Part shown: positions 14,262 to 64,000 of the stretch, piece after piece | Layout: each line of letters starts with the position of its first letter | Position numbering within the stretch: the first letter of the stretch is position 1 | Assembly: GCF_041248615.1 (NCBI RefSeq) | Contig: NZ_CP158426.1 | DNA length: 64,000 nucleotides | Source of the DNA: Escherichia coli | GTDB lineage: Bacteria > Pseudomonadota > Gammaproteobacteria > Enterobacterales > Enterobacteriaceae | Strand: one strand, 5' to 3' | Notes under the pieces: generated by a model | What the model was told of the DNA's origin: nothing | The model's input: only the letters and a program-made list of their open reading frames with translations | Databases searched by the model: none | Program-made: the position numbers and the translations under genes

Positions 14262-14271
14262 TAATGAAACT

Positions 14272-14300: not shown

Positions 14301-16560
14301 ACATCTGACGGTTTTTATTGAAGTTAATCAAACTACCCGCCTTGATAATCTCGCGCTCTTCGGCCGTCAGGCTTTCCATGTAAAGCGTAATTTCCGTTAC
14401 CGGCGCATCTTCATGGATCACATAACCTTTAAACGTCGTACCCGGATTATCCAGCGCTGCTTTAATGCCAGGGATGTAAATGTAATCACCTACGTCAAAG
14501 TTCGGTGCTTCCGCCATTTGCAGCGGTAACATCCCCCAGTTGATGACGTTAGAACGGTAGCGTTTAGTCGCGTACTCCTCGGCAATATTCGCCAGACCGC
14601 CAATCACACGCTGGCAGCTCGCCGCCTGCTCACGCGCAGAACCATCGCCTGGTTTCACCGCATAGACCATGCTGCCAATTTCAGTTTGCAGCGGATCAAT
14701 ATGCTCCTGACCAGCAATCTGCTTAATGCGCGCAAACACCTCTGTCAGCTCGCTGACATTCCCCGCCAGACGCTGATTTTCCAGTTCAGCAGTCGCTTTA
14801 CTTCTGCCAACATAACCTGGATCGCGACGTGACAGGGTAAACTCCGCCAGACCAATCGGATTTGAACGATAAGAAGAGGTTTCACCGGAAGGAATCAATT
14901 CGTCGGTGGTGGTCACTTCGTCGAGGATCTTCGAGCACACTTTGAGGACGATATTGTCAGTCAGCGCACCCAATTCCGGCCAGTCTTTAATGTTCGGTCC
15001 GTAAATCAGCGGTTGCTGAGTTGCCCCTTTCACAAAGCCCTGATAAACACGGTTTTTATACGGCGTTACATCGAAGGCGTACTCCGGCACGTTGTCCCAG
15101 CAATCAAGTTCGCTGGCAGAGGTTAAATAGCCACCGTTTGCCGCAGTCGCAGCGATAGAACGAGCGTCCATCAACGCCACCGCTGACATCTGCCCATTAG
15201 CTGGCTTAGAGCCTTCGCGGTTCGGGAAGTTACGTGTGGTGTGGCGAATACTCAAACCGTTGTTGATTGGCGTATCGCCCGCGCCAAAGCATGGGCCGCA
15301 GAACGCGGTTCTGATGATTGCGCCTGCGCCAATCAAATCTGCTACCACACCTTTTTTGGCGAGATCCATAAACACCGGCTGTGATGACGGGTAAACCGCT
15401 AACGAGAAGGTGTCATTGCCACAGGATTGACCGCGCAGTGCATTCGCCGCCGCGATGACGTTTTCGTAGTTACCGCCAGAACAGCCCGCGATAATCCCCT
15501 GCTGCACTTTCAGGCGACCGTTTTCGACTTTATCCAGCAGCGAGAGTTTGGCTTTACCGTGCGCCACGCGCTCGGACTCAATTTCAATCTCACGCAGAAT
15601 ATCGGTCAGGTTCTGGTTCAGCGTGTCGATTTCATACACGTTGCTCGGGTGAAACGGCAGCGCAATCATTGGTTTGATGGCGCTTAAATCAACGCTGATG
15701 CAGCCATCGTAGTACGCCATCGGTTGAGGGTTAAGCTGGCAGTAATCCTGGCCGCGACCGTGCAGCGCCAGCCAGTTATGGACTTCTTCATCGGTTTGCC
15801 AGACAGAACTTAAACAGGTCGTTTCCGTGGTCATAACGTCAACGCTGTTACGGAAATCGGTAGAGAGCGCAGCAACACCGGGACCTACGAATTCCATCAC
15901 TTTGTTTTTGACGTAGCCGTTTTTGAACACGGCACCGATGATAGCCAGCGCCACATCCTGTGGCCCCACATACGGCGCTGGTTTTCCGGTCAGATGCACC
16001 GCAACAACTCCCGGATAGTCGATATCCCAGGTGTCATTAAGCAATTGTTTTACCAACTCGCCGCCGCCCTCACCGACTGCCATTGTCCCTAATGCACCGT
16101 AACGGGTGTGGCTGTCTGACCCGAGGATCATTTTGCCGCCGCCTGCCATCATCTCACGCATATATTGATGGATGACCGCAATATGCGGAGGCACAAAAAT
16201 ACCGCCATAACGCTGAGCCGCCGATAAACCAAAAACATGGTCATCACCGTTAATGGTGCCACCGACGGCGCAAAGTGAGTTATGGCAGTTGGTCAGCACA
16301 TACGGCAGCGGGAAACGTTCCATACCGGACGCTTTAGCGGTCTGTACAATACCAACAAAGGTAATATCGTGAGAGGCTAATGAATCAAACTTAATTTTAA
16401 GTTTATCCATATTTCCGGACGTATTATGAGAAGAGAGAATAGACCAGGAAATAGTGCCTTTTTTTGCTTCTTCTTTTTTAATTTCGCCGGTGAAATGTTC
16501 TTCGGCAATTATTTCGTTATTACTGGCGAGAAACACGCCTTTTTCAGATAACTTGATCAT
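14299..16560 (-). CDS. ybhJ: Aconitase-family protein YbhJ
   Basis: Track ORF 14299..16584 (761 aa) trimmed to the internal Met giving approx 753 aa. Aconitase-like sequence; conserved K-12 neighbour. Confidence 0.8.
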
Positions 16561-16742
16561 CAAATGCTCCAGATATCTGCGCACCGAGAAGTGCGCAGAA
16601 AGATAATAAATGGATATACTCTAAATAATTCGAGTTGCAGGAAGGCGACAAGCGAGTGAATCCCCAGGAGCTTACATAAGTAAGTGACTGAGGTGAGCGA
16701 ACGCAGACGCAGCACATGCAACTTGAAGTATGACGAGTATAT

Positions 16743-18176: not shown

Positions 18177-18251
18177 TTAAAATCCTGTTCTTTCTGTATG
18201 ACTCATACAGAAGTCCTTTATTGATTGTCCTTATCCTGACAACGAATTTTT

Positions 18252-20441: not shown

Positions 20442-20481
20442 TACACCGGCGCAGGAGAGACTGCGCCGGGTAAATCAGCGG

Positions 20482-21513
<1,032 letters not shown>

Positions 21514-21631
21514 CTAAAATTAGTCGCTTTTGGCGGTGAATGCTGAATTAAAACGCAGAATTTTGTCCGATAGTGGTATCGGTGTACCATTCGCGCAGAC
21601 GAAAATTCTTAACCTTAATCTGGAATACGCC

Positions 21632-23509: not shown

Positions 23510-23511
23510 GA

Positions 23512-24201
23512 TTAGCGCCCCGCCCGTTCACGGCTGATTCTGGCCAGCCATTCTGAAATCAACAGGGAGATCATCGCCAGTGCAATAGAAATAATGCACA
23601 GTCTCGCCGCGCCACTTTCCCCGCCGGGGGTCTGGATCAGGGTATACATGGCAGAAGGAATGGTTCGCGTTTCACCAGGAATGTTCGACACAAAGGTGAT
23701 GGTTGCACCAAACTCACCGAGAGAACGAGCAAAAGCCAGTACCGTACCAACAATAATGCCCGGTAAGGTCAGCGGTAACGTGATAGTAAAGAAAACGCGC
23801 CAGCGCCCGGCACCCAGTGTTCTTGCGGCCTGTTCCAGTTTGACATCAACCCCTTCCAGCGCCAGACGAATTGCCCGCACCATCAGCGGAAACGACATGA
23901 CGGCGGCAGCGAGAACCGCGCCGCGCCAGCTAAAGGCGAAGGTAATGCCAAACCAGTCATACAGACGTTCACCGATAAATCCGCGCCGTCCCATCGAAAC
24001 TAATAATAAGTAACCGACGACCACGGGCGGTAACACCAGCGGTAGATGCAGTACGCTATCGAGCAGAGCTTTGCCCGGAAACGTGCAACGCACCAGTAAC
24101 CAGGCAAAAAAGATCCCAAACGGCAGGCTAAACAGCACAGCCAGGGAAGAAACTTTCAGGCTTAGTAAAACCGCCTGCCATTCTGGATCGGTCAGTATCA
24201 T
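23512..24201 (-). CDS. modB: Molybdate ABC transporter permease ModB
   Basis: 229 aa membrane protein; operon with modA/modC. Confidence 0.9.
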
Positions 24202-24974
24202 TACTTGGTTGTAAATCCGTAACGTTTAAAGATTTCCGCAGCCTGCGGCCCCTTCAGATAATCATAAAATGCTTTCACTGTCGCATTGTTATGCCCTTCC
24301 ACAACAGCAACCGGGTATTCCACTTTTTTATGTGAATCTTCCGGGAAGGTGGCAACCACTTTTACCCCTTTGCTGGCAACTGCGTCAGAACCGTAAACAA
24401 TACCCAGCGGCGCTTCATTGCGTTCGACCAACGCCAGCGCGCCACGAACATCTTCCGCCGGAGCCAGTTTCGGGGAGAGCGTATCCCATGCGCCCAGTTT
24501 TTGCAGTGCTTCTTTTGCATAAATGCCAGCGGGAACATGTTCCGGATCGCCAACCGCCAGGCGACCGCCATTCAGCAGTGAAGTCCAGTTGGTTTTGCTG
24601 TCGATGGTGAAATCTTTCTGCTCACTGGCTTTCGGTGCTACAACGACCAGGCTATTGCCGAGCAGTGTCTGACGCGTAGCTGTATCGATCGCTTTTTTAT
24701 CAACCGCATAATCCATCCATTTCTGATCGGCAGAAATAAACAGATCCGCAGGGGCTCCCGCTTCAATCTGACGGGCGAGAGTAGATGACGAAGCGAAAGA
24801 AGAAACCACATCCACGCCTTTCTCTTTTTTATACTGCGTAGCAATGTCCTGCATTGCGTTAGTCAGTGATGCGGCGGCGAACACCGTGATTTTCCCTTCA
24901 TCTGCCAGTGCATTGCCAGCAACAGCGAAAGAGAGTGCCGCCCCGGCAAACAAGTTCAACCATTTACGAGCCAT
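24201..24974 (-). CDS. modA: Molybdate-binding periplasmic protein ModA
   Basis: 257 aa with signal peptide; start of the modABC operon. Confidence 0.9.
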   Translation of the reverse strand: MARKWLNLFAGAALSFAVAGNALADEGKITVFAAASLTNAMQDIATQYKKEKGVDVVSSFASSSTLARQIEAGAPADLFISADQKWMDYAVDKKAIDTATRQTLLGNSLVVVAPKASEQKDFTIDSKTNWTSLLNGGRLAVGDPEHVPAGIYAKEALQKLGAWDTLSPKLAPAEDVRGALALVERNEAPLGIVYGSDAVASKGVKVVATFPEDSHKKVEYPVAVVEGHNNATVKAFYDYLKGPQAAEIFKRYGFTTK

Positions 24975-24987
24975 TGGTAACCCCTTA

Positions 24988-25018
24988 ATGTAACGTTATG
25001 TAGGCGTCAATATAACGG
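24988..25018. promoter_or_regulatory. ModE operator at the modA promoter (candidate)
   Basis: Reverse complement reads cgttatattgacgcctacataacgttaca, with inverted CGTTATAT / ATAACG elements typical of the ModE site upstream of modA. Confidence 0.5.
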
Positions 25019-25140
25019 CAAGTTCGGAATTTTCCCAGCAGTTATTGCTAACCTTTGTGAGGTAGATGAGAAAAAATATCGGCAGGAAAAGCAGGAAGTT
25101 GAGAAAAAGAAAATGCCCGACTAAGCGGGCATTCAGGGAA

Positions 25141-25308
<168 letters not shown>

Positions 25309-49289: not shown

Positions 49290-50091
49290 GACTCCTTGCT
49301 CATCGCATGAAGACTCCGAGAGTGAACCCCGTTAGAAAGGGTCACACGCATGCCCCAATACAAAATTATTTGCTCGCCTCTATCGTTGCCATTTCATCAA
49401 AAGAGGAAAAGACAATGATAAAAAAGTTACAAATATGTTAATGAATAAACCAAATTGATCCCGTAATTATATTACGCCGCAAAATCCTTACAATAAACAG
49501 GTTTTTATTGAGCAAATTTGCATTTTTCGACAGTGATCAATTTATAGCGAAATTGTCACGATCTCACCAATTTGATCTACGACAATTTATCGTGTTTTGC
49601 AGATTTTTTTCAAGAATTAAAAATTGATTTATATCAAAACCAACCAAATATGTTAATTATGTATAAACCATAGATCATTGGTGATTTTATTGTTAATTTA
49701 TTGTGAAATATTTATGCAACACAATTATTACAATGAAAAGGTATAGATAAAAAACCAGTGTTTTATTTAACAGAACCGCCCTATCCACTTTTTATAATAC
49801 CAATTGATTAGATTAGCCAATTTGTTGCTATTTTACATAACATATTTTTATCAAAGTTAATTGATTGTTGCCTTTATGAGCACCGGCCGTAAGCCCGTTA
49901 TGTTATTGTTTCATTAGTAATAATCACTTAAATGTATCGATGAAACAGGTATGACTTAGCGGGAGTGATTGTTTCTGAGTGAACAGAGACCACTTTCGCC
50001 TGATAAATGAAAAATGAGCGATTTTTGCAAGTTAGTTTTTCTATAGCCGAGTACGCTCAGCGCCTCGCTTGATTACAATGAGGTTGCTGCT
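49290..50091. promoter_or_regulatory. cydAB upstream regulatory region (long AT-rich leader/promoter)
   Basis: About 800 bp non-coding, strongly AT-rich, immediately upstream of cydA; by established knowledge cydAB has a long multi-promoter control region. Individual sites not mapped here. Confidence 0.5.
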
Positions 50092-51036
50092 ATGAGTCCT
50101 GATAATATCAGTTCTGCTGTCAATCGCTTCTCAGGTTGGCCATCTAATGATCCTCTAAAAACAGATAAAGAATCAATGACATCACCCATGACTGTGCAGG
50201 TAATAAAGATGATTGCCGCCATCCTTGATCCACATCGGATAGTCGTTGGAATCGATACACTTTATACAACGCAGCGCGAAACATTTACCTCAGAGAGTCA
50301 ACAGCTCATTGAATCAGCATTGCAAACACTTCATGTGATGAATTTAAATAACCTGGAAACAAATCTCGATGAGGAAGGTCACTATCTGGCTTTTGGATAT
50401 AACGTTGACACTCCTGACAGAATAACCGTTTCTGCTTATAATGAAAAAAAGCCTGGCTGCTATGGTCAATGTCTTTTAATACAGGATGACGAAACAGACT
50501 TATTTAACCTGATAAAAGTTAAAATTTTTGAAGCCAGGCATAATTATGTCGCTCAATTGATGAGCGATCCGGAATTTATGTTCAAATTTAGTTATAGCGC
50601 TCAACAAAATAGATTAGAACCTCATCTTCTGGTTCCCACTTATTTCCCTCTAAAAACAAACGAACCGGTTACGCAAGAGGATGTACTGTTACTTTATCGT
50701 TTCTTTAAAATGGATGGTGATTTTAATATATTAACATCAGATGAATACATGAGTATCATGACACCTCTGATGAAGTGTGAGCGCAGCATCCACGACCACA
50801 ACAGGTATGTGACGGGCAAAGATACCCTTCTTCTGGACTATCCTCCTTCTGGTAACCAGATATATTTCCATATTTTTCCTGACGAATCAGCAACACTAGT
50901 CCTTTATTTTTCAAACAATGACATTGAATGTTTCGTCTTTGAAAGAGATATTCCGAGCCAGTATCGCTTTTTCAAAATGTTTACCAATCTGGCACTGGTT
51001 ATTGATCAGTTAACCGATGCCAATCAAATACTTTAA
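50092..51036 (+). CDS. Hypothetical protein (314 aa), AT-rich orphan gene
   Basis: ORF track. Low GC and codon usage unlike flanking core genes; no recognisable motifs. Confidence 0.45.
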   Translation: MSPDNISSAVNRFSGWPSNDPLKTDKESMTSPMTVQVIKMIAAILDPHRIVVGIDTLYTTQRETFTSESQQLIESALQTLHVMNLNNLETNLDEEGHYLAFGYNVDTPDRITVSAYNEKKPGCYGQCLLIQDDETDLFNLIKVKIFEARHNYVAQLMSDPEFMFKFSYSAQQNRLEPHLLVPTYFPLKTNEPVTQEDVLLLYRFFKMDGDFNILTSDEYMSIMTPLMKCERSIHDHNRYVTGKDTLLLDYPPSGNQIYFHIFPDESATLVLYFSNNDIECFVFERDIPSQYRFFKMFTNLALVIDQLTDANQIL

Positions 51037-51116
51037 TTTTTATATATTCCCTGTGGCAAATATTGCCAAACAATGCCCGGGGATTAATTTTTATTACTCA
51101 CGGAAAGATTTAAATA

Positions 51117-51539
51117 ATGATCCCATCTCAAATCTCTTTCAACACCCTTCCTGTCAATGCAACATACGCTTCAGAGACAACAGTTGACACACAAAAATTC
51201 TCTGACATCCTCTACTCAGCGGGGTGTTCCCTAAAGGATCTGGCTTATCTGAGCAGATGTCTGGCATCAATACATCCGACTATCGCCAAAAACATTTATG
51301 AAACAGAAAATCTCAGCGATCAAAAATTACTGCATATTGATTGCCGTAGTACAAATGAAATCAAGATAAATATCTTTTTTGGTCAACAACGAGAAGGATT
51401 AATTGAAATTAATTCTGACACTGTCATTTTTCCGATATTGTCTTCATTAATTGACTCCGCCATTTCTAAATTTCAACACCAAATCCCCGTTAACGGTTCA
51501 GTAAATCCTGACCTATTGTATGAGGATTATACTGATTAA
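51117..51539 (+). CDS. Hypothetical protein (140 aa), AT-rich orphan gene
   Basis: ORF track. Low GC; follows the 314 aa ORF on the same strand. Confidence 0.4.
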   Translation: MIPSQISFNTLPVNATYASETTVDTQKFSDILYSAGCSLKDLAYLSRCLASIHPTIAKNIYETENLSDQKLLHIDCRSTNEIKINIFFGQQREGLIEINSDTVIFPILSSLIDSAISKFQHQIPVNGSVNPDLLYEDYTD

Positions 51540-52085
51540 ATCCACCCAGTCGCGAAAATGGCCTGCGTTATTGCCAGACGTAATAAAACTTTTGATTAAC
51601 GTTACTCGTACTGGTAGCACCTTCATGTACTTTTCTTTTTTACGAAAAATCAAAAGAGCTAACAAAGGTCATAATTCGCATGAATCATTAATTATTTGTT
51701 ATTTTCAACATTATTTTTACATTAAGCAGAGATGAATTGCAGTGAAATTCGACTTAACTTTTATGAAATGCATTTACTCATGGCTAAAGCCACGTCACAA
51801 AAATGCAAATTAGAAGTTGATCACAATTATCTCAATACATCAAATCAAGTTAATTTTAAAAATTTAACATTCATGACATTAGTTGACATAACACACTGAA
51901 TTAAAATGAGAATTTGAAAACACACTTTAAACAATCATTTCCCGAAAGACATTTTGAAAATAGATCAATTGCAACATTACGGTCAGATAAAGACACTCCT
52001 GTGATATTAAACCTGTGCCGTTATGAGCGGCCATAAATACGACGTGTGTAACTTATTTTACTCTCTGTCTTACAAAGGATTACCC

Positions 52086-52535
52086 ATGAAGAAAGCAACA
52101 CTTGTGATTGGCGTTATTGGCGCGGACTGCCATGCAGTAGGCAATAAAGTTCTGGACCGCGTTTTTAGCAACCATGACTTCAGAGTTATTAATCTGGGCG
52201 TAATGGTCAGCCAGGACGAATATATTGATGCTGCCATTGAAACTGGTGCTGACGCGATTGTCGTCTCCTCTATCTATGGGCATGGCGATATCGATTGTCT
52301 GGGCATGCGCGAACGCTGCATCGAGCGTGGGCTGGGTAACATCCTGCTCTATGTGGGCGGTAACCTGGTGGTCGGAAAACATGACTTCGCTGACGTGGAA
52401 ACCAAGTTCAAAGAGATGGGATTTGATCGCGTCTTTTCCCCAAGTCATGACTTAGAAGATGTTTGTCAGCTGATGGCCCACGATATCAACCAACGTCATA
52501 ACGTTGATACTCGCATTCTTGAAGAGGCAATCTGA
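52086..52535 (+). CDS. glmS: Glutamate mutase sigma subunit (methylaspartate mutase S chain, B12-binding)
   Basis: Track ORF 52023..52535 trimmed to [24 protein letters not shown] (149 aa), a cobalamin-binding DxHxxG-type motif (ADCHAVGNK). Confidence 0.8.
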
Positions 52536-53923
52536 TGCAAATCGTCTCTGTCGATATTGGTTCGACGTGGACCAAAGCAGCCCTCTTCGCCCGGGAGGGG
52601 GACGCGTTAACGTTGGTTAACCACGTACTGACCCCAACCACCACCCATCATCTGGCGAAGGGGTTTTTCTCCAGCCTGAACCTGGTGTTAAACGTAGATA
52701 ATGCCCTCCCCCTGTTTAACAGCGGTGAGGTTACATTGAAGTATTCCTCCTCTGCCAAAGGTGGGCTGGCGGTTGCCGCAATGGGATTGGTGCCTTCTAT
52801 CACCCTGGAAACCGCGAAAGTAACCGCTCACTCTGCGGGGGCTAAAATTGCGCAATATTACGCCTACAAGCTGAACCGCCGTGATATCCAGGCACTGGAA
52901 GAAACGCAGCCCGATATTCTCTTGTTCACCGGCGGCACCGACGGCGGAGAAGAAAGCTACGGCCTGAATAACGCCCGTGTGCTGGCAGAATCCAAACTCG
53001 ACTGCGCCATTATTTATGCCGGAAACCGGGATATTCAGGACGAGGTGCAGGAGATCCTAGGGCATAAAGACCTGACCATCGTCGACAACGTTCTGCCCGA
53101 TCTTGACCATCCGAACCCTTTAGCCGCACGCCAGGCTATCTGCGACATATTCCTTAAACGCATCGTTAAAGGGAAAGGGCTGGATGTCGTTGTTGATAAA
53201 ACAGGCGAAGAACCAATGCCGACACCATGGACGGTCTTTGAACTGGTTAAGGCAATCAGTAACGTCGATCACAGCTGGAAAGAGTTCATGCTGATCGACA
53301 TGGGCGGCGCAACCACCGATGTCTATTCCGCCTGTGCCAACACGCTCTCGCCCGACACCGTTTTACACGGCGTACCGGAACCCTTCGTGAAACGGACGGT
53401 GGAAGGCGATCTGGGAATGCGCGTCTCGGCAATGGTGGTTGGTGAAAGTGCGAAAGAGTTAGTCAATGTGAATTTTGCTCAGCAACCCGCACAGCTGGAC
53501 GCTTTTTATCATTACCTCCGTCATCTAGTCGCTCATCCCGACTACTTACCCGCGAATGCAGAAGAAAAATATTTCGATACCGTCCTGGCCGGACTGTGTG
53601 TGGGTTATGCCACCGAAAGACATGCGGGCACCAAAAAAGAGGTCTGCACCTGCGTCGGCAATGTCGATTTACAGATGGGACGTGACCTGACAACCGTGCG
53701 TAAAGTCGTCGGATCCGGCGGATGGCTCTCGCGTGCCAGTCAGTTCGATATGCATCACTGGTTGAAATACCGCGAGTTAAACGACGACGGTAAACGCATT
53801 CTCTTACCGACCGAATTTGAATATTACCGCGATTCCCGGGGGCTATTACCACTGCTGGCAAACGTCGCCAGAGTCGATCCGCTGGCCGCCGCGCGCACCA
53901 GTATTCAATGCTTAACCCTATAA
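52535..53923 (+). CDS. glmL: Glutamate mutase accessory protein (MutL/GlmL-like)
   Basis: 462 aa located between the S and E subunit genes, the arrangement known from Clostridium glutamate mutase operons. Confidence 0.7.
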   Translation: MQIVSVDIGSTWTKAALFAREGDALTLVNHVLTPTTTHHLAKGFFSSLNLVLNVDNALPLFNSGEVTLKYSSSAKGGLAVAAMGLVPSITLETAKVTAHSAGAKIAQYYAYKLNRRDIQALEETQPDILLFTGGTDGGEESYGLNNARVLAESKLDCAIIYAGNRDIQDEVQEILGHKDLTIVDNVLPDLDHPNPLAARQAICDIFLKRIVKGKGLDVVVDKTGEEPMPTPWTVFELVKAISNVDHSWKEFMLIDMGGATTDVYSACANTLSPDTVLHGVPEPFVKRTVEGDLGMRVSAMVVGESAKELVNVNFAQQPAQLDAFYHYLRHLVAHPDYLPANAEEKYFDTVLAGLCVGYATERHAGTKKEVCTCVGNVDLQMGRDLTTVRKVVGSGGWLSRASQFDMHHWLKYRELNDDGKRILLPTEFEYYRDSRGLLPLLANVARVDPLAAARTSIQCLTL

Positions 53924-53941
53924 CAATTAAGGCTGCAATCA

Positions 53942-55387
53942 ATGGAACTTCGAAATAAGAAATTAACCCATGACGAATTCATGACCGAGCGGCAACAGGT
54001 ACTGAAAACCTGGGAAACCGGCAAGGATGTTGAAAACTTTGAAGATGGCGTTAAATACCAACAAACCATTCCTGAGCATAAACGCTTCTCTCTTGCGCTG
54101 TTGAAAGCAGACAAGGAAGGTAAAACCCTTAGCCAACCGCGCGCAGGTGTGGCGCTGATGGACGAACACATCGAACTACTGAAAACACTACAAGAAGAGT
54201 GCGATCTGCTGCCGAGCACTATCGATGCATATACCCGTCTGAATCGGTACGAAGAAGCGGCTGTAGGGATTAAAAAATCCATCGAAGCCGGAACCTCTAA
54301 ACTGAACGGTTTGCCGGTAGTTAACCATGGCGTCGCAGCTTGCCGTCGCCTCACCGAAACCCTGCAAAAACCGCTACAGATCCGCCACGGCACGCCAGAT
54401 GCGCGTCTGCTGGCTGAAATCTCAATGGCCAGCGGCTTTACCAGTTATGAAGGCGGTGGCATTTCCTACAACATTCCGTATGCCAAACGCGTAACGCTGG
54501 AAAAATCGATCCGCGACTGGCAGTACTGCGACCGTTTAATGGGGATGTATGAAGAACACGGGATCCGCATCAACCGCGAACCGTTTGGCCCACTAACGGG
54601 TACGCTGATCCCGCCGTTTATCTCGCACTCTATCGCGATAATCGAAGGCTTGCTGGCGCTGGAACAGGGTGTGAAATCTATCACCGTTGGTTATGGACAG
54701 GTCGGCAGCCTGACGCAGGATGTTGCGGCGATCCAGTCTCTGCGTGAACTTGCACACGAATATTTTCAGAGCTATGGCTATACCGACTATGAATTAAGTA
54801 CCGTGTTTCACCAGTGGATGGGCGGCTTTCCGGAAGACGAATCGAAAGCGTTCGCTATTATCTCCTGGGGCGCAGCCGTCGCGGGGATGTCTGGTGCCAC
54901 CAAAGTCATCACCAAAAGTCCGCACGAAGCCTGGGGCATCCCGACTGCCGCTGCCAACATTCAGGGGCTGAAAGCCTCCCGCCAGATGCTCAACATGGTC
55001 AACGAGCAGAAATTCCCGCCGTGCCCTGCGGTTGAACTGGAAATTGAACTGATTAAGAGCGAGGTTCGCGCGGTACTGAATAAAGTGTTCGAACTGGGTA
55101 ATGGTGATATTGCGCGCGGTACGGTGCTGGCATTTGAAGCGGGCGTACTGGATGTGCCGTTTGCGCCAGCCGCCTGCAACGCGGGCAAAATTCTTCCGGT
55201 CCGTGACAACACCGGCGCGATACGCGTACTGGAAGCCGGAGCCGTTCCATTGCCAAAAGATATTCTCGACCTCCACCACGATTACGTTGCTGAACGCGCA
55301 CGCTTTGAAGGACGCCAACCGACATTCCAGATGGTTGTAGATGACATCAATGCTGTATCCCACAGTAAATTAATAGGAAGACCATAA
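53942..55387 (+). CDS. glmE: Glutamate mutase epsilon subunit (methylaspartate mutase E chain)
   Basis: 481 aa; size and position match GlmE. Confidence 0.8.
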   Translation: MELRNKKLTHDEFMTERQQVLKTWETGKDVENFEDGVKYQQTIPEHKRFSLALLKADKEGKTLSQPRAGVALMDEHIELLKTLQEECDLLPSTIDAYTRLNRYEEAAVGIKKSIEAGTSKLNGLPVVNHGVAACRRLTETLQKPLQIRHGTPDARLLAEISMASGFTSYEGGGISYNIPYAKRVTLEKSIRDWQYCDRLMGMYEEHGIRINREPFGPLTGTLIPPFISHSIAIIEGLLALEQGVKSITVGYGQVGSLTQDVAAIQSLRELAHEYFQSYGYTDYELSTVFHQWMGGFPEDESKAFAIISWGAAVAGMSGATKVITKSPHEAWGIPTAAANIQGLKASRQMLNMVNEQKFPPCPAVELEIELIKSEVRAVLNKVFELGNGDIARGTVLAFEAGVLDVPFAPAACNAGKILPVRDNTGAIRVLEAGAVPLPKDILDLHHDYVAERARFEGRQPTFQMVVDDINAVSHSKLIGRP

Positions 55388-56628
55388 TGAAAATAAAACA
55401 GGCTCTGTTCACCGCTGGCTACTCCTCATTCTATTTCGATGACCAGCAGGCGATAAAAAACGGAGCGGGTCATGACGGCTTTTTTTATACCGGGGAGCCA
55501 GTAACACAGGGGTTTAACGCCGTACGTCAGGCCGGGGAGTGCGTATCGGTACAGTTGATTCTGGAAAACGGCGCGGTCGCCGTAGGTGACTGTGCTGCCG
55601 TACAGTATTCCGGGGCAGGTGGTCGCGATCCACTGTTCCTCGCAGAGCACTTTATTCCGTTCCTCAACGACCATATCAAGCCATTACTGGTAGGCCGCGA
55701 TGTGGATGCTTTCCTGCCGAATGCCCGTTTCTTCGACAAATTGCGTATTGACGGCAACTTGCTACATACCGCCGTGCGCTACGGATTATCACAGGCGCTG
55801 CTTGATGCTACCGCGCTGGCAACCGGCCGTCTGAAAACTGAAGTAGTTTGCGATGAATGGCAGTTGCCACGCGTGGCGGAATCCATTCCATTATTTGGTC
55901 AGAGCGGTGACGATCGATATATCGCCGTCGATAAGATGATCCTTAAGGGCATCGACGTGCTGCCCCATGCACTGATTAATAACGTCGAAGAGAAACTAGG
56001 CTTTAAAGGTGAAAAACTGCGCGAATATGTCCGCTGGCTGTCGGATCGTATTCTGAGCAAGCGCACCAGCGCACGCTACCACCCTACCCTGCACATCGAT
56101 GTATACGGCACTATCGGTCTGATCTTCGATATGGATCCGCTTCGCTGTGCGCAATACATCGCCAGCCTGGAAAAAGAAGCGCAAGGCCTGCCGCTCTACA
56201 TTGAAGGGCCGGTCGATGCCGGTAACAAGCCCGATCAAATTCGCCTGCTGACCGCGATTACCAAAGAGCTGACGCGCCTCGGTTCCGGCGTGAAAATTGT
56301 GGCCGATGAATGGTGTAACACCTACCAGGATATTGTTGATTTTACTGATGCCGCCAGTTGCCACATGGTGCAAATCAAAACCCCGGATCTGGGCAGTATT
56401 CACAACATCGTCGATGCGGTTCTTTACTGCAACAGCCACAGCATGGAAGCGTACCAGGGCGGCACCTGCAATGAAACTGATGTCAGTGCCCGCACCTGTG
56501 TCCACGTCGCCCTTGCCGCTCGCCCTATGCGTATGCTGGTAAAGCCAGGGATGGGCTTTGACGAAGGCCTCGATATCGTCTTCAACGAAATGAATCGTAC
56601 TATCGCGCTGTTGCAGGCTAAGGATTAA
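55387..56628 (+). CDS. 3-methylaspartate ammonia-lyase (enolase superfamily)
   Basis: 413 aa MKIKQALFTAGYSSFYFDDQQAIKNGAGHDGF...; size and N-terminus match methylaspartase as remembered. Start overlaps the glmE stop. Confidence 0.8.
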   Translation: MKIKQALFTAGYSSFYFDDQQAIKNGAGHDGFFYTGEPVTQGFNAVRQAGECVSVQLILENGAVAVGDCAAVQYSGAGGRDPLFLAEHFIPFLNDHIKPLLVGRDVDAFLPNARFFDKLRIDGNLLHTAVRYGLSQALLDATALATGRLKTEVVCDEWQLPRVAESIPLFGQSGDDRYIAVDKMILKGIDVLPHALINNVEEKLGFKGEKLREYVRWLSDRILSKRTSARYHPTLHIDVYGTIGLIFDMDPLRCAQYIASLEKEAQGLPLYIEGPVDAGNKPDQIRLLTAITKELTRLGSGVKIVADEWCNTYQDIVDFTDAASCHMVQIKTPDLGSIHNIVDAVLYCNSHSMEAYQGGTCNETDVSARTCVHVALAARPMRMLVKPGMGFDEGLDIVFNEMNRTIALLQAKD

Positions 56629-56631
56629 CAA

Positions 56632-58002
56632 ATGGCTCGTTCTTTTAAAGTCTTATCGCCAACGGCAATCCTCGGGTATGGATTCCCGGAAGAGAGCTTC
56701 CGTAAAGCGATGGCAGAATCGCCCGATCTGATCGCCGTTGATGCAGGCTCTTCCGATCCTGGCCCCCACTACCTCGGGGCGGGCAAACCGTTTACCGATC
56801 GCGCAGGGGTCAAGCGCGATCTGCGCTATATGATCACCGCAGGCGTGCAAAATAATATACCGGTGGTGATCGGAACGGCTGGCGGTTCTGGTGCCGCACC
56901 ACACCTGGAGTGGTGCCGAGAAATAATTCATGAGATTGCCCAGGAAGAGCACCTCTCGTTCTCAATGGCGCTGATCCCGGCAGACGTTGACAAAGCCATC
57001 GTCCACCAGGCGCTGGATAACGGCAAAATCACGGCGCTGGAGTTTGTCCCGCCGTTAACCCACGACGCGATTGACGAAAGTACGTATATCGTTGCGCAAA
57101 TGGGCATCGAACCCTTCCAGCGGGCGCTGAAAGAAGGCGCGCAAGTGGTGCTGGGCGGGCGCGCTTACGACCCGGCCTGCTTTGCTGCGCTTCCGATCAT
57201 GCAAGGCTTTGATGAAGGTCTGGCGCTGCATTGTGGGAAAATCCTTGAATGCGCGGCAATCGCCGCAACGCCCGGCTCAGGCTCTGACTGTGCGATGGGC
57301 ATCATTGATGACAACGGCTTTACGCTGAAGACATTTAATCCGAAGCGTAAATTTACCGAAACGTCAGCGGCTGCACACACACTGTATGAGAAATCCGATC
57401 CCTACTTCCTGCCTGGACCTGGCGGCGTGTTGAACCTGAAAGGCTGCACATTTAAAGCGGTCAATGACAGCGAAGTGTACGTCAGCGGTTCTAAGCATGA
57501 AGAAACGCCGTATGCCCTGAAACTGGAAGGTGCGCGACGAGTGGGCTTCCGCTGTCTGACCATCGCAGGAACGCGCGACCCGATCATGATCGCCGGGATC
57601 GATAAAATCATCGATGAAGTCAAAACCAGCGTTTCGCGTAACCTGTCGCTCGACGATGACAGCATTCGCATCAATTTCCACCTGTACGGCAAAAACGGGG
57701 TGATGGGAGACCATGAACCGATGCAAACTGCCGGGCATGAGCTGGGGATTGTCCTTGATGTAGTTGCACCGACCCAGGAAATTGCCAACAGCGTTTGCTC
57801 GCTGGTGCGCTCTACCATGCTGCACTACGGCTATGAAAACCGCATCGCTACCGCAGGTAATCTGGCGTTCCCGTTCTCCCCTTCTGATATCCAGGGCGGG
57901 CCGGTATACGAATTTTCCATATATCACCTGATTGAAGCCAACGACGCTCTGCGTTTTGATTTCCATATTGAACAGGTGACGCCAGAAGGAGTTCAGGCAT
58001 GA
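56632..58002 (+). CDS. DUF1446 (AtuA-like) family protein, function unknown
   Basis: 456 aa ORF inside the mesaconate operon; family assignment from memory of AtuA-like sequences, unverified. Confidence 0.45.
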   Translation: MARSFKVLSPTAILGYGFPEESFRKAMAESPDLIAVDAGSSDPGPHYLGAGKPFTDRAGVKRDLRYMITAGVQNNIPVVIGTAGGSGAAPHLEWCREIIHEIAQEEHLSFSMALIPADVDKAIVHQALDNGKITALEFVPPLTHDAIDESTYIVAQMGIEPFQRALKEGAQVVLGGRAYDPACFAALPIMQGFDEGLALHCGKILECAAIAATPGSGSDCAMGIIDDNGFTLKTFNPKRKFTETSAAAHTLYEKSDPYFLPGPGGVLNLKGCTFKAVNDSEVYVSGSKHEETPYALKLEGARRVGFRCLTIAGTRDPIMIAGIDKIIDEVKTSVSRNLSLDDDSIRINFHLYGKNGVMGDHEPMQTAGHELGIVLDVVAPTQEIANSVCSLVRSTMLHYGYENRIATAGNLAFPFSPSDIQGGPVYEFSIYHLIEANDALRFDFHIEQVTPEGVQA

Positions 58003-58316
58003 AACAGTCAATTGTCTCACTGGCGCAAGTCATTCGTTCGAAAAATGCCGGACCTTACGAACTGGTTTTAGATATTTTATTTAAAACCAAAGAAAACTAT
58101 GAGCGTGTCAAATCATCAGGGCAATTAACCCCAGAACTGATCGCGCGCTTATATCATGTTGAACCTGACTTTATTCATCGTATTGTCTGGTTTGATCCTT
58201 CTAACGCAGTAAAAATCGTCATGCCACGAGATATTATCTCCGGGAATGTAGGTGACAATGATGTCTATGGTGCACAGCAACATGCACCTTTATTAAATAT
58301 GAGTTTCGATTTGTAA
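57999..58316 (+). CDS. DUF4387-like small protein, function unknown
   Basis: 105 aa; start overlaps the DUF1446-like stop (ATGA), suggesting translational coupling and a two-protein unit. Confidence 0.4.
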   Translation: MKQSIVSLAQVIRSKNAGPYELVLDILFKTKENYERVKSSGQLTPELIARLYHVEPDFIHRIVWFDPSNAVKIVMPRDIISGNVGDNDVYGAQQHAPLLNMSFDL

Positions 58317-58476
58317 AAATCCGAATACTTTTAGCCAACTGACATCCCGTCACTTATTGCAGTTCAACACTTCAGCTATTTGTAAGGTTGTAATAGCAGG
58401 TAGATGCCTGAATCTCTATTCGGGCATCTACTTCTCCTGATTCTGATTTATCGCCGTGCACCTGATGGAGGAAAAA

Positions 58477-59757
58477 ATGAAGAAAATAAGTTTAACCACG
58501 ATGATTCTTTTGGCGCTGGTACTTGGAATGATTATCGGCGTAGTGCTCAATAACACTGCTTCACCGGAAACCGAAAAACTCTATGCGCAAGAAATATCGA
58601 TATTCACGACGATTTTCTTACGACTGATAAAAATGATTATCGCTCCGTTAGTGGTCTCTACCCTGGTGGTAGGTATAGCTAAAATGGGCGATGCCAAAGC
58701 CCTTGGTCGTATTTTTTCTAAAACACTCTTTTTATTTATTTGCGCCTCATTGCTGTCAATTGCCTTAGGCTTGATAACAGTAAATTTCTTCATGCCAGGC
58801 ACAGGAATTAATTTTGTTGCACACGGAGCCGAAACCACCGGAGTGGTCGCGTCAGAACCCTTTACGCTAAAAGTATTTATTTCGCATGCTTTCCCCACCA
58901 GCATTGTCGATGCCATGGCGCACAATGAAATTTTGCAAATCGTGGTGTTCTCAATTTTCCTCGGCTGTAGCCTGACGGCGATTGGCGAGAAAGGCAGCGC
59001 CATCGTTCACGCCTTAGATTCGCTGGCACATGCCATGTTAAAGCTCACTGGCTACGTCATGCTCTTCGCTCCCCTGACCGTATTCGCTGCTATTTCAGCA
59101 TTGATTGCTGAACGAGGACTGGCAGTTATGGTGAGCGCCGGGATCTTTATGGGTGAATTTTATTTCACCATGTTATTACTTTGGGTGCTGCTTATCGGTC
59201 TGGCCATCGTTTATGTTGGCCCCTGCATCAGACGCCTGACCCGCGCCCTTTCGGAACCCGCCCTGCTGGCATTTACCACATCCAGTTCTGAAGCGGCTTT
59301 TCCGGGAACGCTTGAAAAACTGGAGCAATTTGGCGTTTCCCCCAAAATTGCCAGCTTTGTCTTACCCATTGGCTACTCATTTAATCTTGTTGGATCAATG
59401 GCCTACTGCTCCTTCGCCACAGTTTTCATCGCCCAGGCCTGCAATATCCATTTATCCATCGGTGAGCAAATCACCATGCTGTTGATCCTGATGTTGACCT
59501 CGAAAGGAATGGCTGGCGTACCACGCGCCTCAATGGTGGTTATCGCCGCCACGCTCAACCAGTTCAATATTCCGGAAGCGGGGCTGATCTTGCTGATGGG
59601 CGTTGATCCGTTCCTTGATATGGGGCGTTCCGCGACAAACGTCATGAGCAACGCAATGGGCGCTGCGATGGTGAGTCGGTGGGAAGGCGAACATTTCGGC
59701 GAGGGTTGTCGGGGTAAAGCATTAAAACCCAATGAATCGAACGTTGCTCTGCCCTGA
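58477..59757 (+). CDS. Dicarboxylate/amino acid:cation symporter (GltP/DAACS family), likely glutamate or C4/C5-dicarboxylate uptake
   Basis: Track ORF 58456..59757 trimmed to ATG 58477 with RBS ggagg (426 aa). Polytopic with conserved DAACS-like motifs. Confidence 0.75.
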   Translation: MKKISLTTMILLALVLGMIIGVVLNNTASPETEKLYAQEISIFTTIFLRLIKMIIAPLVVSTLVVGIAKMGDAKALGRIFSKTLFLFICASLLSIALGLITVNFFMPGTGINFVAHGAETTGVVASEPFTLKVFISHAFPTSIVDAMAHNEILQIVVFSIFLGCSLTAIGEKGSAIVHALDSLAHAMLKLTGYVMLFAPLTVFAAISALIAERGLAVMVSAGIFMGEFYFTMLLLWVLLIGLAIVYVGPCIRRLTRALSEPALLAFTTSSSEAAFPGTLEKLEQFGVSPKIASFVLPIGYSFNLVGSMAYCSFATVFIAQACNIHLSIGEQITMLLILMLTSKGMAGVPRASMVVIAATLNQFNIPEAGLILLMGVDPFLDMGRSATNVMSNAMGAAMVSRWEGEHFGEGCRGKALKPNESNVALP

Positions 59758-59864
59758 GGGGGATCTTAAGCAATCAGAAGCCAATGACTACGCATTTTTA
59801 TAAGCCGGATCATGAAGTTAGACGGCAATTAAGTAAAACTAACGTTTAAGGTGAAAAGTGAAAT

Positions 59865-61517
59865 ATGTCCAAACCATTTATCTGGCAAGAACCGTTTCTA
59901 CAAAATAAAGACGGTACAGAATATACATTAATTAGCGATCAACATATTACAGTAACGGAATTAGACGGCGAAGAAGTAATAAAAATCGCTCCTGAAGCAT
60001 TAACGCTGCTTGCCCGGCAGGCATTTTATGAAGCCTCTTTTTTCTTACGTTCCGCTCATTTGCAACAGGTCGCCAGCATTCTTAACGATCCGCAGGCCAG
60101 TAGTAATGATAAATACGTTGCGTTGCAGTTATTACGTAATGCTGAAGTCTCAGCAAAAGGGGTATTACCCAACTGTCAGGATACCGGCACCGCAACTATT
60201 GTTGCCAGTAAAGGGCAACAGATATGGACGGGAGGTAACGACGCTGAAGCCTTAAGCAAAGGCATTTACAGTACTTTCCAGGAAAATAACCTGCGCTTTT
60301 CACAAAATGCGCCGCTGGATATGTACACCGAAGTCAATACGCAAACCAATCTCCCGGGGCAGATTGATATCAGCGCTGTCGCTGGTGATGAGTACCATTT
60401 TCTCTGTATTAATAAAGGGGGCGGCTCTGCCAATAAAGCCGCGCTTTATCAGGAAACCAAATCCTTATTGCAACCAGAAAAACTGACCGCATTTTTAATC
60501 GAAAAAATGAAATCGCTGGGCACCGCTGCCTGCCCGCCTTACCACATCGCCTTTGTCGTCGGAGGGCTTTCAGCCGATCAAACCTTAAAAGTTGCCAAGC
60601 TGGCCTCAACGAAATATTACGACAATTTGCCCACCAGCGGAAACGAGCAAGGACAAGCATTCCGTGATATTGAGCTGGAAAAAGTATTGCTCGAGGCCAG
60701 TCAGCAATTTGGTATTGGTGCGCAATTTGGAGGTAAATATTTCGCTCATGATATTCGCGTCATTCGTCTGCCGCGTCACGGTGGCTCCTGCCCGATAGCT
60801 ATGGCGCTCTCCTGTTCTGCCGATCGCAATATCAAAGCAAAAATTAACAAGCACGGTATCTGGCTGGAAAAACTCGAACACAATCCGGGGCAATATATTC
60901 CAGCCTCACTGCGGGAAGAAAATCACGCGCAACATGTACAACTGGATCTAAACCGTCCGTTGCGTGACGTGATGCAGGATCTCGCCAGATTACCGGTAGG
61001 CACCCGCGTGTCGTTAAGTGGTCCCATCGTAGTGGCACGCGATATCGCCCACGCCAAAATAAAAGCGCGGCTGGATAACGCCGAACCGATGCCGGATTAC
61101 CTGAAGCATCATATTGTCTATTACGCTGGCCCGGCGAAAACACCGGAGAACATGGCCTGCGGTTCACTGGGTCCAACCACGGGCGGTCGAATGGACGGTT
61201 ATGTCGATACCTTCCAGGCGGCTGGCGGCAGTCTGGTGATGTTATCGAAAGGTAACCGCAGCCAGCAGGTCACCGATGCCTGTCACAAACATGGTGGCTT
61301 CAATCTGGGTAGTATTGGCGGTGCAGCTGCGTTACTGGCGCAAGAATATGTCAAAAGTCTGCGTTGCCTGGAATACCCGGAGCTGGGTATGGAAGCGGTG
61401 TGGATGATGGAAGTGGAAAATCTGCCCGCATTCATCCTGGTAGATGATAAAGGCAATAATTTCTTTAGTCAGTTTGAGCAGCAACACCGCTGCGCCAGTT
61501 GCCCTGCGGGACATTAA
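59865..61517 (+). CDS. fumD: Class I fumarate hydratase family enzyme (mesaconase/fumarase FumD-type)
   Basis: 550 aa FumA/FumB-like Fe-S hydratase (C-terminal CxxC-containing region). Its context with glutamate mutase and methylaspartase implies mesaconate hydration. Confidence 0.75.
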
Positions 61518-61526
61518 GGAAAATGA

Positions 61527-62129
61527 ATGGAAGCGCGAATTTCAACTGAACGGCATGTGCAGCGCCAGCAGAAATTGAAGGAACAGGTCGATACGCGCGT
61601 CGCGGCGGCGATAGAGAAAAAAGGGATTTTGATTGTTTTCACCGGCAATGGCAAAGGGAAATCCACTGCCGCGTTTGGTACTGTGACGCGCGCGGTGGGT
61701 CATGGCAAAACGGTGGGGGTTGCGCAGTACATCAAGGGGCAATGGGACAACGGCGAATACAACCTTCTCCAGCCGCTGGGGGTTGAGTTTCATATTATGG
61801 GAACCGGTTTTACCTGGGAGACACAGAACCGGCAAGCGGATATCGACGCGGCGAAAGAGGTCTGGTCGGAAAGCAAACGGATGCTGGCTGACAAGCGTTA
61901 CGACTTAGTGGTGCTTGATGAGCTGACCTATATGCTGGCTTACCATTATCTGGACACCGAAGAAGTGATCGCTTCTCTGCAAAACCGCCCGGCACAACAA
62001 AGTGTCATTGTCACCGGACGCGGTTGCCACAGTCAGATATTAAAAATGGCGGATACGGTCAGCGAAATCCGCCCCGTCAAACATGCTTTTGATAACGGCA
62101 TTCAGGCGCAGCCGGGTATCGACTGGTAA
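61527..62129 (+). CDS. Cob(I)alamin adenosyltransferase (CobA/BtuR-type)
   Basis: 200 aa with P-loop GNGKGKSTAAFG; highly similar to E. coli BtuR from memory. Likely supplies adenosylcobalamin for glutamate mutase. Confidence 0.8.
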   Translation: MEARISTERHVQRQQKLKEQVDTRVAAAIEKKGILIVFTGNGKGKSTAAFGTVTRAVGHGKTVGVAQYIKGQWDNGEYNLLQPLGVEFHIMGTGFTWETQNRQADIDAAKEVWSESKRMLADKRYDLVVLDELTYMLAYHYLDTEEVIASLQNRPAQQSVIVTGRGCHSQILKMADTVSEIRPVKHAFDNGIQAQPGIDW

Positions 62130-62162
62130 TAACTGCGCCTGGCATCCCGCCAGGCGCAGGTT

Positions 62163-63068
62163 TTACATCTCCTGCGGTACGACCGATTTCGCCAGCAACC
62201 ATTCACGAAATTGCTGCAAGTGCGGCGAGTCAGACTTCTCTTCCTGCCACGTCATAATAAAACGATTACCGGTACGAATAGGCACATCACAGGGAATCAC
62301 CATATCGCCACTATCCAAATCATGTTGAATAGCGAACCGTGGTAACAGCGCCACGCCGAGATTAGAGCGCACGGCGGCAATCAGCATTGAAAGCAAATCG
62401 AAACGTGGTCCGTTATTGACCAGCGGACTGCTAACGCCAGATAAAGCAAACCACTCTTCCCAGCCAGTAATACGGGTGCTTTGATGCAGAAGTGGTAACT
62501 CAGTAAGCAGTTCTGCCACTGACAGTTTTTGATCGGACATTGCAAGCAAACTGCCGCTGCATACCGGCAAAATCTCCTCATCAAAGAGATATTCTACTTC
62601 CGCCCAGGGCGCGCAAAAATTTTCGCGCATAATGACAGCATCGTACTCCCGATTAAGAAAATCGCCGTTATTAGCTAAAGAATGAATATTAACAATAATA
62701 TCGGGATGTAACTTTGTGAATTCATGTAAATTTGGGATTAACCAGTGGGTACTAAAAGTAGGATTAACGGCAAGTTCAATAACCTGAACCGTAGGCTGCC
62801 AGGTCATAATGGTATTGGTATCGCGTTCCAGCTTATTTAATGTTTCTTTTACTATCCCCAGGTAATACTTCCCTGCATCATTAAGAAAAATACGTTTTTT
62901 AGAGTGTGAAAATAACGGAGTATGTAAAAATTCCTCCAGCGCACTCACTTGTCTGAATACAGCACTTTGGGTTAACGCTAACTCCTCTGCCGCTCTGGTA
63001 TAACTTTCATGACGTGCGACGACCTCAAAAGTCACCAGCAGCTCCGTTTTAGGTATTTTTCCTCGCAT
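62163..63068 (-). CDS. LysR-family transcriptional regulator
   Basis: 301 aa with N-terminal LysR HTH (ESYTRAAEELALTQSAVFRQVSALE). Convergent with the operon. Confidence 0.8.
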   Translation of the reverse strand: MRGKIPKTELLVTFEVVARHESYTRAAEELALTQSAVFRQVSALEEFLHTPLFSHSKKRIFLNDAGKYYLGIVKETLNKLERDTNTIMTWQPTVQVIELAVNPTFSTHWLIPNLHEFTKLHPDIIVNIHSLANNGDFLNREYDAVIMRENFCAPWAEVEYLFDEEILPVCSGSLLAMSDQKLSVAELLTELPLLHQSTRITGWEEWFALSGVSSPLVNNGPRFDLLSMLIAAVRSNLGVALLPRFAIQHDLDSGDMVIPCDVPIRTGNRFIMTWQEEKSDSPHLQQFREWLLAKSVVPQEM

Positions 63069-63635
63069 AATGCCGTCCCTTAAAAATAGTTTAAACCATC
63101 AAAAATACATTACTTATTACGAAGTAATGGTAACCAAAGCAGCAATAAATAATTTATAAGAATCATGATTGACATTTATAACCCAGTAAGCCTAGCGTGA
63201 CAAATATCTTAATCAGATAATAATAATCCGAAAAGCACAGCGCCTTTCGAATTATCCGGAATCACATTAAGTGAAAATTATTAAATTGATATCATTTATC
63301 ATATCTGTGGATATTATGATAAACAATCAACAAAGATTTTATTTTTGATTTATAGCATATCCCTCTAAGAATTTTTGCGATGCTGCAATATCCGGGTAAA
63401 GACCCGATCCTGGCTGACAAATGGCACGACTTGACGATAAGCGGTGAACATCGCTTTTGTTGATTTACTTAACGCTACGGTCAAACGCTGGGAAGCCAGT
63501 GCATCAGGTAACGATTCGAAATTCGCCGTCGTTCTTATTCGTGGCTTGCGGTCGGTTGCGGCAATCCACAGTGGCTGTGGTCATGCAGTCAAGCCAGCGG
63601 TCAGATTTCGACCGTGGTTAACATTTAAGGCATAA

Positions 63636-63661
63636 AAAAGGCCATCATACGATGGCCAACC
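63636..63661 (-). terminator. Intrinsic terminator downstream of sucD
   Basis: Hairpin ggccatcgtatgatggcc followed by tttttt on the minus strand. Confidence 0.45.
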
Positions 63662-63732
63662 ATGTCGAAACCGACAGCCCTTCGCCATTCCTGTAGAGGG
63701 AAGCGGCGAGGGCTATTTCTTATTACAGATAT

Positions 63733-64000
63733 TTATTTCAGAACAGTTTTCAGTGCTTCACCGATATCCGCCAGGCTGCGAACGGTTTTCACGCCTGCGG
63801 CTTCCAGAGCAGCGAATTTCTCATCCGCAGTCCCTTTTCCACCGGCAATGATCGCACCCGCGTGGCCCATACGTTTGCCTTTCGGCGCAGTCACACCAGC
63901 GATGTAACCCACAACAGGCTTGGTAACGTGCTCTTTGATGTACGCAGCCGCTTCTTCTTCAGCGCTACCGCCGATCTCACCGATCATCACGATCGCTTCG
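63733..64000 (-). CDS. sucD: Succinyl-CoA synthetase alpha subunit, 3' part (partial; continues beyond window end)
   Basis: C-terminal 85 aa ...[44 protein letters not shown] matches the SucD C-terminus from memory. Confidence 0.85.

Follow-up and report, generated by a model that had tools for sequence, protein, structure and literature searches.

The 664 bp that lie between the LysR-family regulator and sucD (63069..63732 of the window, that is, of the whole stretch of 64,000 nucleotides of Escherichia coli DNA analysed here) are read as an old and progressively eroded deletion scar followed by the small RNA gene sdhX, with no mngR sequence in it, and we put the probability of this reading at roughly 90%. 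The residue of the scar consists of the spacer between the hut genes and LysR, 137 + 64 bp of an ammonia-lyase gene and 57 + 44 bp of rtcB (Table 1). For annotation purposes the stretch should be described as HAL/HutH-like and RtcB-family pseudogene remnants plus sdhX, neither as mngR nor as a hypothetical protein. The junction is a case of ordinary genome decay which leaves general concepts unchanged, and the main worth of the finding is the correct annotation.

Table 1. Features of the junction in the window and their counterparts in the intact island of strain M25631H (L005)
Feature	Window	Strand	L005	Basis or remark
Segment with cobO, LysR, spacer and last 138 bp of HAL	61500-63475		13161-15137	
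LysR-family regulator, 301 aa, intact	62163..63068	-		ORF; last gene of the methylaspartate-pathway cluster
LysR leader	63069..63086	-		last bases common to every island form, including strain 5283
AT-rich spacer, 27.8% GC	63087..63338	.	14748..14999	formerly intergenic, from the HAL stop codon to LysR
Inverted repeat CATTACTT-N6-AAGTAATG, then T-run	63108..63129	-	14792..14767	hairpin, hut/LysR strand
Second conserved hairpin, stem ~15 bp	63221..63257	-		downstream of the HAL stop codon
HAL/PAL/TAL (HutH-like) ammonia-lyase pseudogene fragment 1	63339..63475	-	15000..15137	blastn, tblastn
Absent from window: 343 bp of HAL			15138-15480	
HAL/PAL/TAL (HutH-like) ammonia-lyase pseudogene fragment 2	63471..63534	-	15481-15541 (window 63471-63531)	blastn, tblastn
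Absent from window: remaining HAL, hut genes, most of rtcB			15542-24634	
RtcB-family pseudogene fragment 1, residues ~375-393	63535..63591	+	24635-24691	blastn, tblastn
Absent from window: 175 bp of rtcB			24692-24866	
RtcB-family pseudogene fragment 2	63592..63635	+		blastn, tblastn
Segment with rtcB end, sdhX and sucD	63594-64000		24867-25273	
63-aa ORF, chimeric frame	63444..63635	+		ORF list; frames from tblastn
sdhX (RybD) sRNA	63632..63732	-		K-12 annotation b4764 and identity
sucD, 3' part	63733..64000	-		ORF and annotation of the identical region; stop codon 63733-63735

Composition of the junction

The initial annotation had estimated about 660 bp between the LysR start and the sucD stop, in agreement with the length measured, and had divided them into an AT-rich stretch (63100..63360) and a GC-normal part with only a 63-aa ORF and the sucD terminator. 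Low GC is indeed present, with 28.5% in 200-bp windows over 63100-63399, but the spacer proper stops at 63338 and the last ~25 bp of the AT-rich stretch as it was claimed are the 3' end of the ammonia-lyase pseudogene. From 63339 to 63631 the GC content is 47.4%, and that of the whole window is 49.2%. The open frame of 63 aa exists but it is not the sole small ORF, as four others overlap it (54 aa at 63457..63621 on the + strand, 42 aa, 39 aa and 35 aa). The G+C-rich hairpin and T-run at 63657..63640 on the sucD strand, which had been taken for the sucD terminator, are also there, but they belong to the sRNA sdhX.

The intact form of the island is found in strain M25631H, in the order cydA, two hypothetical genes, the methylaspartate cluster (glmS-glmL-mutE-methylaspartate ammonia-lyase-AtuA-DUF4387-symporter-class I fumarase-cobO), LysR (-), a hut cluster with all genes on the - strand (HAL, hutG, hutI, hutD, permease, hutU), rtcB (+) and sucD (-). 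The strain represented by L003 (L003 + L009) has the same intact order, with a 465-aa RtcB-family gene that is convergent with sucD and has its end in the sdhX terminator. In intact islands, such as those of M25631H and IAI39, rtcB adjoins sucD, and the lost block of hut genes and rtcB amounts to ~10 kb. The LysR gene of the window is 99.0% identical to that of M25631H, and its best NCBIfam match is the GcvA subfamily, under the curated cut-off. A global alignment to the rtcB 3' end with MAFFT misplaced the pieces because of the internal deletions, and local blastn was used instead. K-12-type E. coli are not known to have any hut genes, and no relevant description was found in the literature on the methylaspartate/mngR/sucD locus or on hutH/hutU/phylogroup in E. 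coli.

The intact relatives cluster hutU, hutI, hutG, hutD, a permease and a HAL-family lyase, as the hut operons of enterics and of Pseudomonas do. They differ in the lyase itself, for which the best NCBIfam matches are HutH models at 277-295 bits against cut-offs of 524-539, so its assignment to HutH rests on the clustering with hutU, hutI and hutG; in the window only 201 bp of the gene are left. HAL fragment 1 shows 86% identity to its M25631H counterpart (blastn) and covers residues 511-556, the final 46 codons of the gene. Its frame is shifted by the loss of 1 bp near 63394, and tblastn places residues 511-538 in frame -2 and residues 539-556, with 18/18 identical, in frame -1 (E = 2e-17). 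Fragment 2 is 87% identical (blastn, E = 2e-15) and encodes residues ~375-397 (tblastn, E = 3e-7). The TTC at its end belongs to a more upstream part of the gene (L005 15729-15731) and matches the junction of Escherichia sp. E1V33. A sensitive search with 63340-63540 retrieved the 3' part of a gene annotated as "HAL/PAL/TAL family ammonia-lyase" in ~140 genomes.

Both rtcB pieces derive from the 3' quarter of the intact 465-aa gene (L003, L005, L011), which matches NCBIfam RtcB models below their cut-offs. Fragment 1 is 91% identical to L003 7769..7825 (blastn, E = 7e-19) and to the M25631H gene, 93% identical to strain 5283 and identical at 56/57 positions to Escherichia sp. E1V33, and 18/24 of its residues agreed in tblastn (residues ~375-398 in the match, E = 2e-10). 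Fragment 2, which matches L003 from 8001 and L005 from 24867 onward (blastn), lies in another frame than fragment 1 and holds the last 13-14 codons and the stop TAA (63633-63635); here tblastn matched PAVRFRPWLTFKA and the stop to RtcB residues 451-465. Relative to the intact gene 175 bp are missing between the two, and of its 1,398 bp ~100 are left, in two frames and with no intact reading frame. When the region was searched against genomes, a third class of matches was found from 63594 onward, beneath genes annotated as "RtcB family protein". The HAL and rtcB remnants are presumably non-functional.

Homology between the window and strain 5283 (L011) runs over 61500..63086 and ends 18 bp upstream of the LysR start codon, so the upstream signals of LysR would have to come from the AT-rich tract. 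This tract may still supply a putative LysR promoter, and may carry a weakened hut terminator. In a consensus promoter scan the number of sites did not exceed that in shuffled sequence, and the LysR strand of the window had none. The inverted repeat at 63108..63129, whose arms are conserved in L005 and in E. whittamii, forms 8 pairs in the window and is not called as a terminator; in the intact island the same element forms 11 pairs and is called terminator-like on the - strand. It is probably a weakened intrinsic terminator of the lost hut operon, the alternative being an LTTR operator (T-N11-A). The second hairpin folds with -19.0 kcal/mol (z = -3.6) in the window and with -22.6 kcal/mol (z = -6.1) in the intact island, and both spacer hairpins are read as 3' signals of the lost hut operon.

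In strain 5283 the region upstream of LysR (L011 13429..13891) is a spacer of 463 bp and 30.5% GC, without homology to the tract of the window, and contains an ERIC-like repeat (L011 ~13614-13748). A 137-bp stretch of the window far from the junction (16606..16741) is 85% identical to this ERIC/IRU-like repeat of the LysR-rtcB spacer and is apparently a copy of an intergenic repeat that is dispersed in enterobacteria. The fact that island variants have non-homologous regions upstream of LysR may matter for the regulation of the methylaspartate pathway.

sdhX and the comparison with K-12

The K-12 ncRNA gene sdhX (b4764, 765050-765150) aligns to window 63732-63632, directly after the sucD stop and on the sucD strand, within a region that matches K-12 at 99.1-99.3% up to 63630. 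The sdhX of the window has 101 nt, of which 100/101 are identical to K-12, and the sole difference is found at 63633 in the 3' tail (U in the window, G in K-12). The Rho-independent terminator is formed by a hairpin at 63640..63657 and a U-run at 63634..63639 (GGCCATCGTATGATGGCC then TTTTTTAT), and the whole RNA folds with -42.1 kcal/mol (z = -4.6). The seed UUCGACAUGGU (core CGACAU), as defined by Miyakoshi et al. (2019, PMC6393394), lies at 63659..63669 (-), just upstream of the terminator stem-loop. According to the same authors SdhX is an Hfq-dependent sRNA that RNase E releases from the sdhCDAB-sucABCD mRNA at its 3' end, and the SdhX of the window would likewise be expected to be processed by RNase E, to bind Hfq and to repress ackA. 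Position, length, seed and terminator are the same as in K-12 and nothing of substance differs, except that the convergent neighbour is an rtcB stump rather than mngR. A permissive Rfam search of 62000-64000 gave only a spurious match to a Rickettsia sRNA (E = 0.74) and no SdhX family, and sdhX was identified from the K-12 annotation since Rfam lacks a detecting model. We infer that sdhX and its terminator alone are under selection in the junction, which would explain why every arrangement of the locus ends at the sdhX 3' end.

In K-12 sucD and sdhX are followed by two bases and then by the stop codon of the convergent mngR. K-12 765000-765152 corresponds to window 63782-63630 and K-12 771085-773500 to window 49662-47244, and between them 5.9 kb of K-12 (765153-771084, with mngR, mngA, mngB and part of the cydA spacer) stand against 14.0 kb of the window (49663-63629). 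The mngR-mngA-mngB genes occupy the same chromosomal interval, from sdhX to cydA, and have left no sequence trace in the window.

It had been proposed that the GC-normal part could be what is left of the gene next to sucD in other strains, mngR in K-12, and that it would mark the island boundary and indicate replacement rather than simple insertion. A gene remnant is what was found, but its pieces are RtcB and HAL instead of mngR. The chance that the 3' end of mngR was left behind when the island replaced mngRAB is vanishingly small: in most E. coli genomes, K-12 included, mngR does adjoin sdhX, and mngRAB is missing from the window relative to K-12, but similarity to mngR is absent at both the DNA and the protein level. 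When 62900-63740 was aligned to K-12 by blastn (word 7, E<=1) the sole match was 63630..63740 (99.1%), made up of sdhX, 2 further nt and the first sucD bases, so the sucD-mngR run of K-12 is similar on its sdhX side only, and tblastn with MngR (a GntR/UTRA repressor) on the same region gave no match at E<=10. Moreover the K-12 homology stops at 63630, one base beyond the position of the mngR stop codon, and the HAL and rtcB fragments account for the full sequence. It is likewise very unlikely, though less extremely so, that selection has preserved in the GC-normal part either a functional small protein (the 63-aa ORF) or a new small RNA. This tract is 98.5-100% conserved among ~835 E. coli genomes and a few RefSeq annotations place a hypothetical protein at the ORF (H39, H41), but such identity is the usual E. 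coli background, and in most genomes RefSeq has no annotation at this position. The ORF is made up of antisense HAL fragments, of rtcB fragment 1 out of frame and of the last 14 rtcB codons in frame, it has no family match in NCBIfam, and it is broken by differing indels in E1V33 and E. whittamii; Rfam found nothing. The 63-aa ORF is a chimera of unrelated frames and not a gene.

Under the preferred reading of an eroded scar, the junction is not the boundary of the island that it had been taken for, but an internal deletion scar in a larger island that comprised the methylaspartate cluster, hut and rtcB. Relative to K-12 the boundary lies at 63630, at the sdhX 3' end. Replacement does fit the comparison of K-12 with the window, but it was not one swap, as strain 5283 carries both contents.

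Deletion history and age of the scar

The fullest form of the locus has the order cydA, two hypothetical genes, the methylaspartate cluster, LysR, the hut cluster, convergent rtcB and sdhX-sucD. The sequence comparisons show that an 8.9-kb deletion, with one end midway in the lyase gene and the other in the 3' quarter of rtcB, fused the two genes at the junction CGCCGTCGTTC/TTATTCGTGG, after which a deletion of ~151 bp between GCAGCC(A/T)GCG repeats took out more of rtcB. The last step was lineage-specific, with the loss of 343 bp in the lyase remnant, of 187 bp between two CGCCGTCG repeats and of 13 bp in rtcB (CGGAGCGGGACGC), together with a 1-bp frameshift.

A scan of the HAL protein against one genome per species revealed remnants in Escherichia sp. 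E1V33 (L016) and in E. whittamii (L017). The window and E1V33 agree in the rtcB-side breakpoint and in the junction string (...TACGCCGTCGTTC/TTATTCGTGGCTTGCGG...) and share the ~151-bp rtcB deletion, and since the junction is also present in this species the main 8.9-kb deletion must be old. Within HAL, E1V33 has a 260-bp deletion different from the 343-bp one of the window, and it retains 385 bp of the gene with both CGCCGTCG copies. The scar of E. whittamii is different and independent, with 315 bp of HAL, 133 bp of hutU and ~100 bp of rtcB (3' end). The longer scar of E1V33 type was searched in the E. coli genomes and none carries it, the only genomes that cover at least 80% of the query being the 145 with an intact HAL; the order of the secondary deletions is taken from another species.

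Erosion goes on in some E. coli: strain MMC-J-0078 has lost the spacer and the 5' half of LysR through an additional deletion. Strain CFSAN018748 (L002 19096..20000) has a junction 100% identical to that of the window and a LysR gene annotated as frameshifted (905 bp). In the window LysR is an intact 906-bp ORF, and in L006 its 5' half is deleted. The frameshifted gene of CFSAN018748, compared with the intact one of the window, indicates that some scar-type strains are losing the regulator.

Bacterial pseudogenes are reportedly eroded through successive small deletions under a deletional bias, as Mira, Ochman and Moran are said to have described in 2001. The scar resembles this process in that a large inactivating deletion is followed by smaller ones at short direct repeats and by a frameshift, and in that the residual fragments differ between lineages. 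It departs from it in that the primary junction is common to two Escherichia species and that intact alleles persist in other E. coli.

The spacer is collinear with that of M25631H at ~86%, the adjoining LysR coding sequence being at 99%. Both intact E. coli alleles, which have spacers identical to each other, share only 86% identity with the spacer and HAL remnant of the window, and LysR, cobO and the class I fumarase gene show 1-3% third-codon-position divergence between the window and the intact alleles. When the window, L005, E1V33 and E. whittamii were aligned, 22 substitutions were private to the window and 5-9 to each of the other three. A scar tract at 86% next to flanks diverged by 1-3% means that the scar of the window has not descended recently from the sampled intact E. 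coli alleles, and the genealogy of the scar haplotype is either older than, or foreign to, that of its flanks.

Two other histories have to be weighed against these data. It is extremely improbable that the scar is an ancestral empty site into which the hut-rtcB block was inserted in the carrier strains. The rarity of the hut block (145/5,426 genomes) would agree with such an insertion, as would the nearest relatives of the lyase outside Escherichia, which belong to the Sutterellaceae (56-57%) and suggest an earlier horizontal origin, but the HAL and rtcB pieces of the window, internal as well as terminal, are out of frame and yet correctly ordered and oriented, which no insertion can bring about, and in each of three Escherichia lineages these genes are truncated in a different way. 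Where a gene is intact in other genomes, truncated and frame-shifted ends of it arise only by deletion, and the scar is for this reason the derived state. A more serious possibility, to which we would give somewhat less than even odds, is that the scar haplotype was recombined into E. coli from a diverged Escherichia lineage and then spread, instead of being inherited vertically since before the diversification of the species. Identity falls abruptly from 99% to 86% at the start codon of LysR, the rtcB remnant agrees at 56/57 positions with E1V33 and at just 91% with the intact alleles of E. coli, and within E. coli the scar hardly varies, with 775 genomes at least 99% identical. However, the AT-rich and HAL parts are just 82-88% identical to E1V33, so E1V33 itself is not the donor, and the excess of substitutions unique to the window could also mean relaxed constraint.

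In the species-level genome scan the nearest lyase relatives outside Escherichia were those of Sutterella sp. (L013) and Turicimonas muris (L015), gut Sutterellaceae, and relatives in Serratia (L014, L018) had 43-44% identity. Together with HutH scores below the NCBIfam cut-offs, these matches suggest that the hut lyase of E. coli is horizontally acquired and atypical. A lyase 100% identical to that of E. coli was found in the metagenome-assembled genome Citrobacter sp. HRGM_Genome_0066 (L012), probably an E. coli bin that is contaminated or carries the wrong label.

Distribution in E. coli and the interval between cydA and sdhX

Among the 5,426 complete E. coli genomes searched, all but one carry the sdhX part of the junction. 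The scar type, with at least 80% of the query covered, was found in ~835 of them, including O157:H7 strains and SMS-3-5, and an intact HAL/hut in 145, including IAI39, CE10 and ST648. A gene for RtcB is present in 290 (at least 80% covered), from which ~145 genomes of the strain 5283 type, with rtcB and without hut, were deduced; the remaining genomes are K-12-like or other. About one sixth of E. coli genomes, O157:H7 among them, descend from a hut-positive arrangement. The deletion series is clean and datable and could act as a lineage marker. Two of the 5,551 matches of the query containing sdhX are on plasmids, and in the strain with the identical sequence the 40 kb that surround the junction contain no annotated integrase.

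Strain 5283 has the methylaspartate cluster, LysR, the 463-bp spacer, an intact rtcB and then mngB-mngA-mngR-sdhX-sucD. As the methylaspartate cluster, rtcB and mngBAR occur together in this strain, the contents of K-12 and of the window are not mutually exclusive. The difference between the two is best explained, from the arrangements compared, by several independent gains and losses at a hypervariable site and not by one replacement. In strain 5283 rtcB ends in ...TTTAAGGGGTAA and mngR in ...CGATAAGCATAAAAAAGG. Where the native rtcB end is TTTAAGGGGTAA, that of the window reads TTTAAGGCATAA, and the window, L003, L005, E1V33 and E. whittamii all read ...TTTAAGGCATAAAAAAGG. The fused rtcB is joined to the base that follows the stop codon of mngR, the two sides overlapping by 1 bp at 63630, and the last 5-6 nt of 63592..63635 are the mngR-sdhX spacer and the sdhX side of this older fusion. 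The rtcB-sdhX join may be either a 5.6-kb deletion of mngBAR or the reciprocal insertion.

At the fusion (window 63630..63635; L005 24903..24908) the rtcB end GGG TAA has become GCA TAA, from the mngR-sdhX spacer and the sdhX tail. The fused gene of L005 still encodes 465 aa with one residue changed, G to A, and its stop codon overlaps the sdhX 3' end.

The interval contains mngRAB alone, a TPR-protein gene alone, the methylaspartate cluster with rtcB and mngBAR, the methylaspartate cluster with hut and rtcB, or the methylaspartate cluster with the scar. Tentatively, and with the odds slightly against it, the interval may be seen as hypervariable, with at least five E. coli contents that all end within 2 nt of the sdhX terminator, and the hut-loss allele of the window, whose deletion junction recurs in another Escherichia species, would be either a presence/absence polymorphism that predates the species or a loss allele that entered by introgression and spread to ~15% of E. 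coli, including O157:H7.

The fifth arrangement, cydA-TPR protein-sdhX-sucD, was observed in strains HH45 and CFIAFB20120266 (L019, L020). In L004 a TPR gene lies beyond mngB, and mngA and mngR are truncated. In all three sequences the homology to the window ends exactly at the sdhX 3' end.
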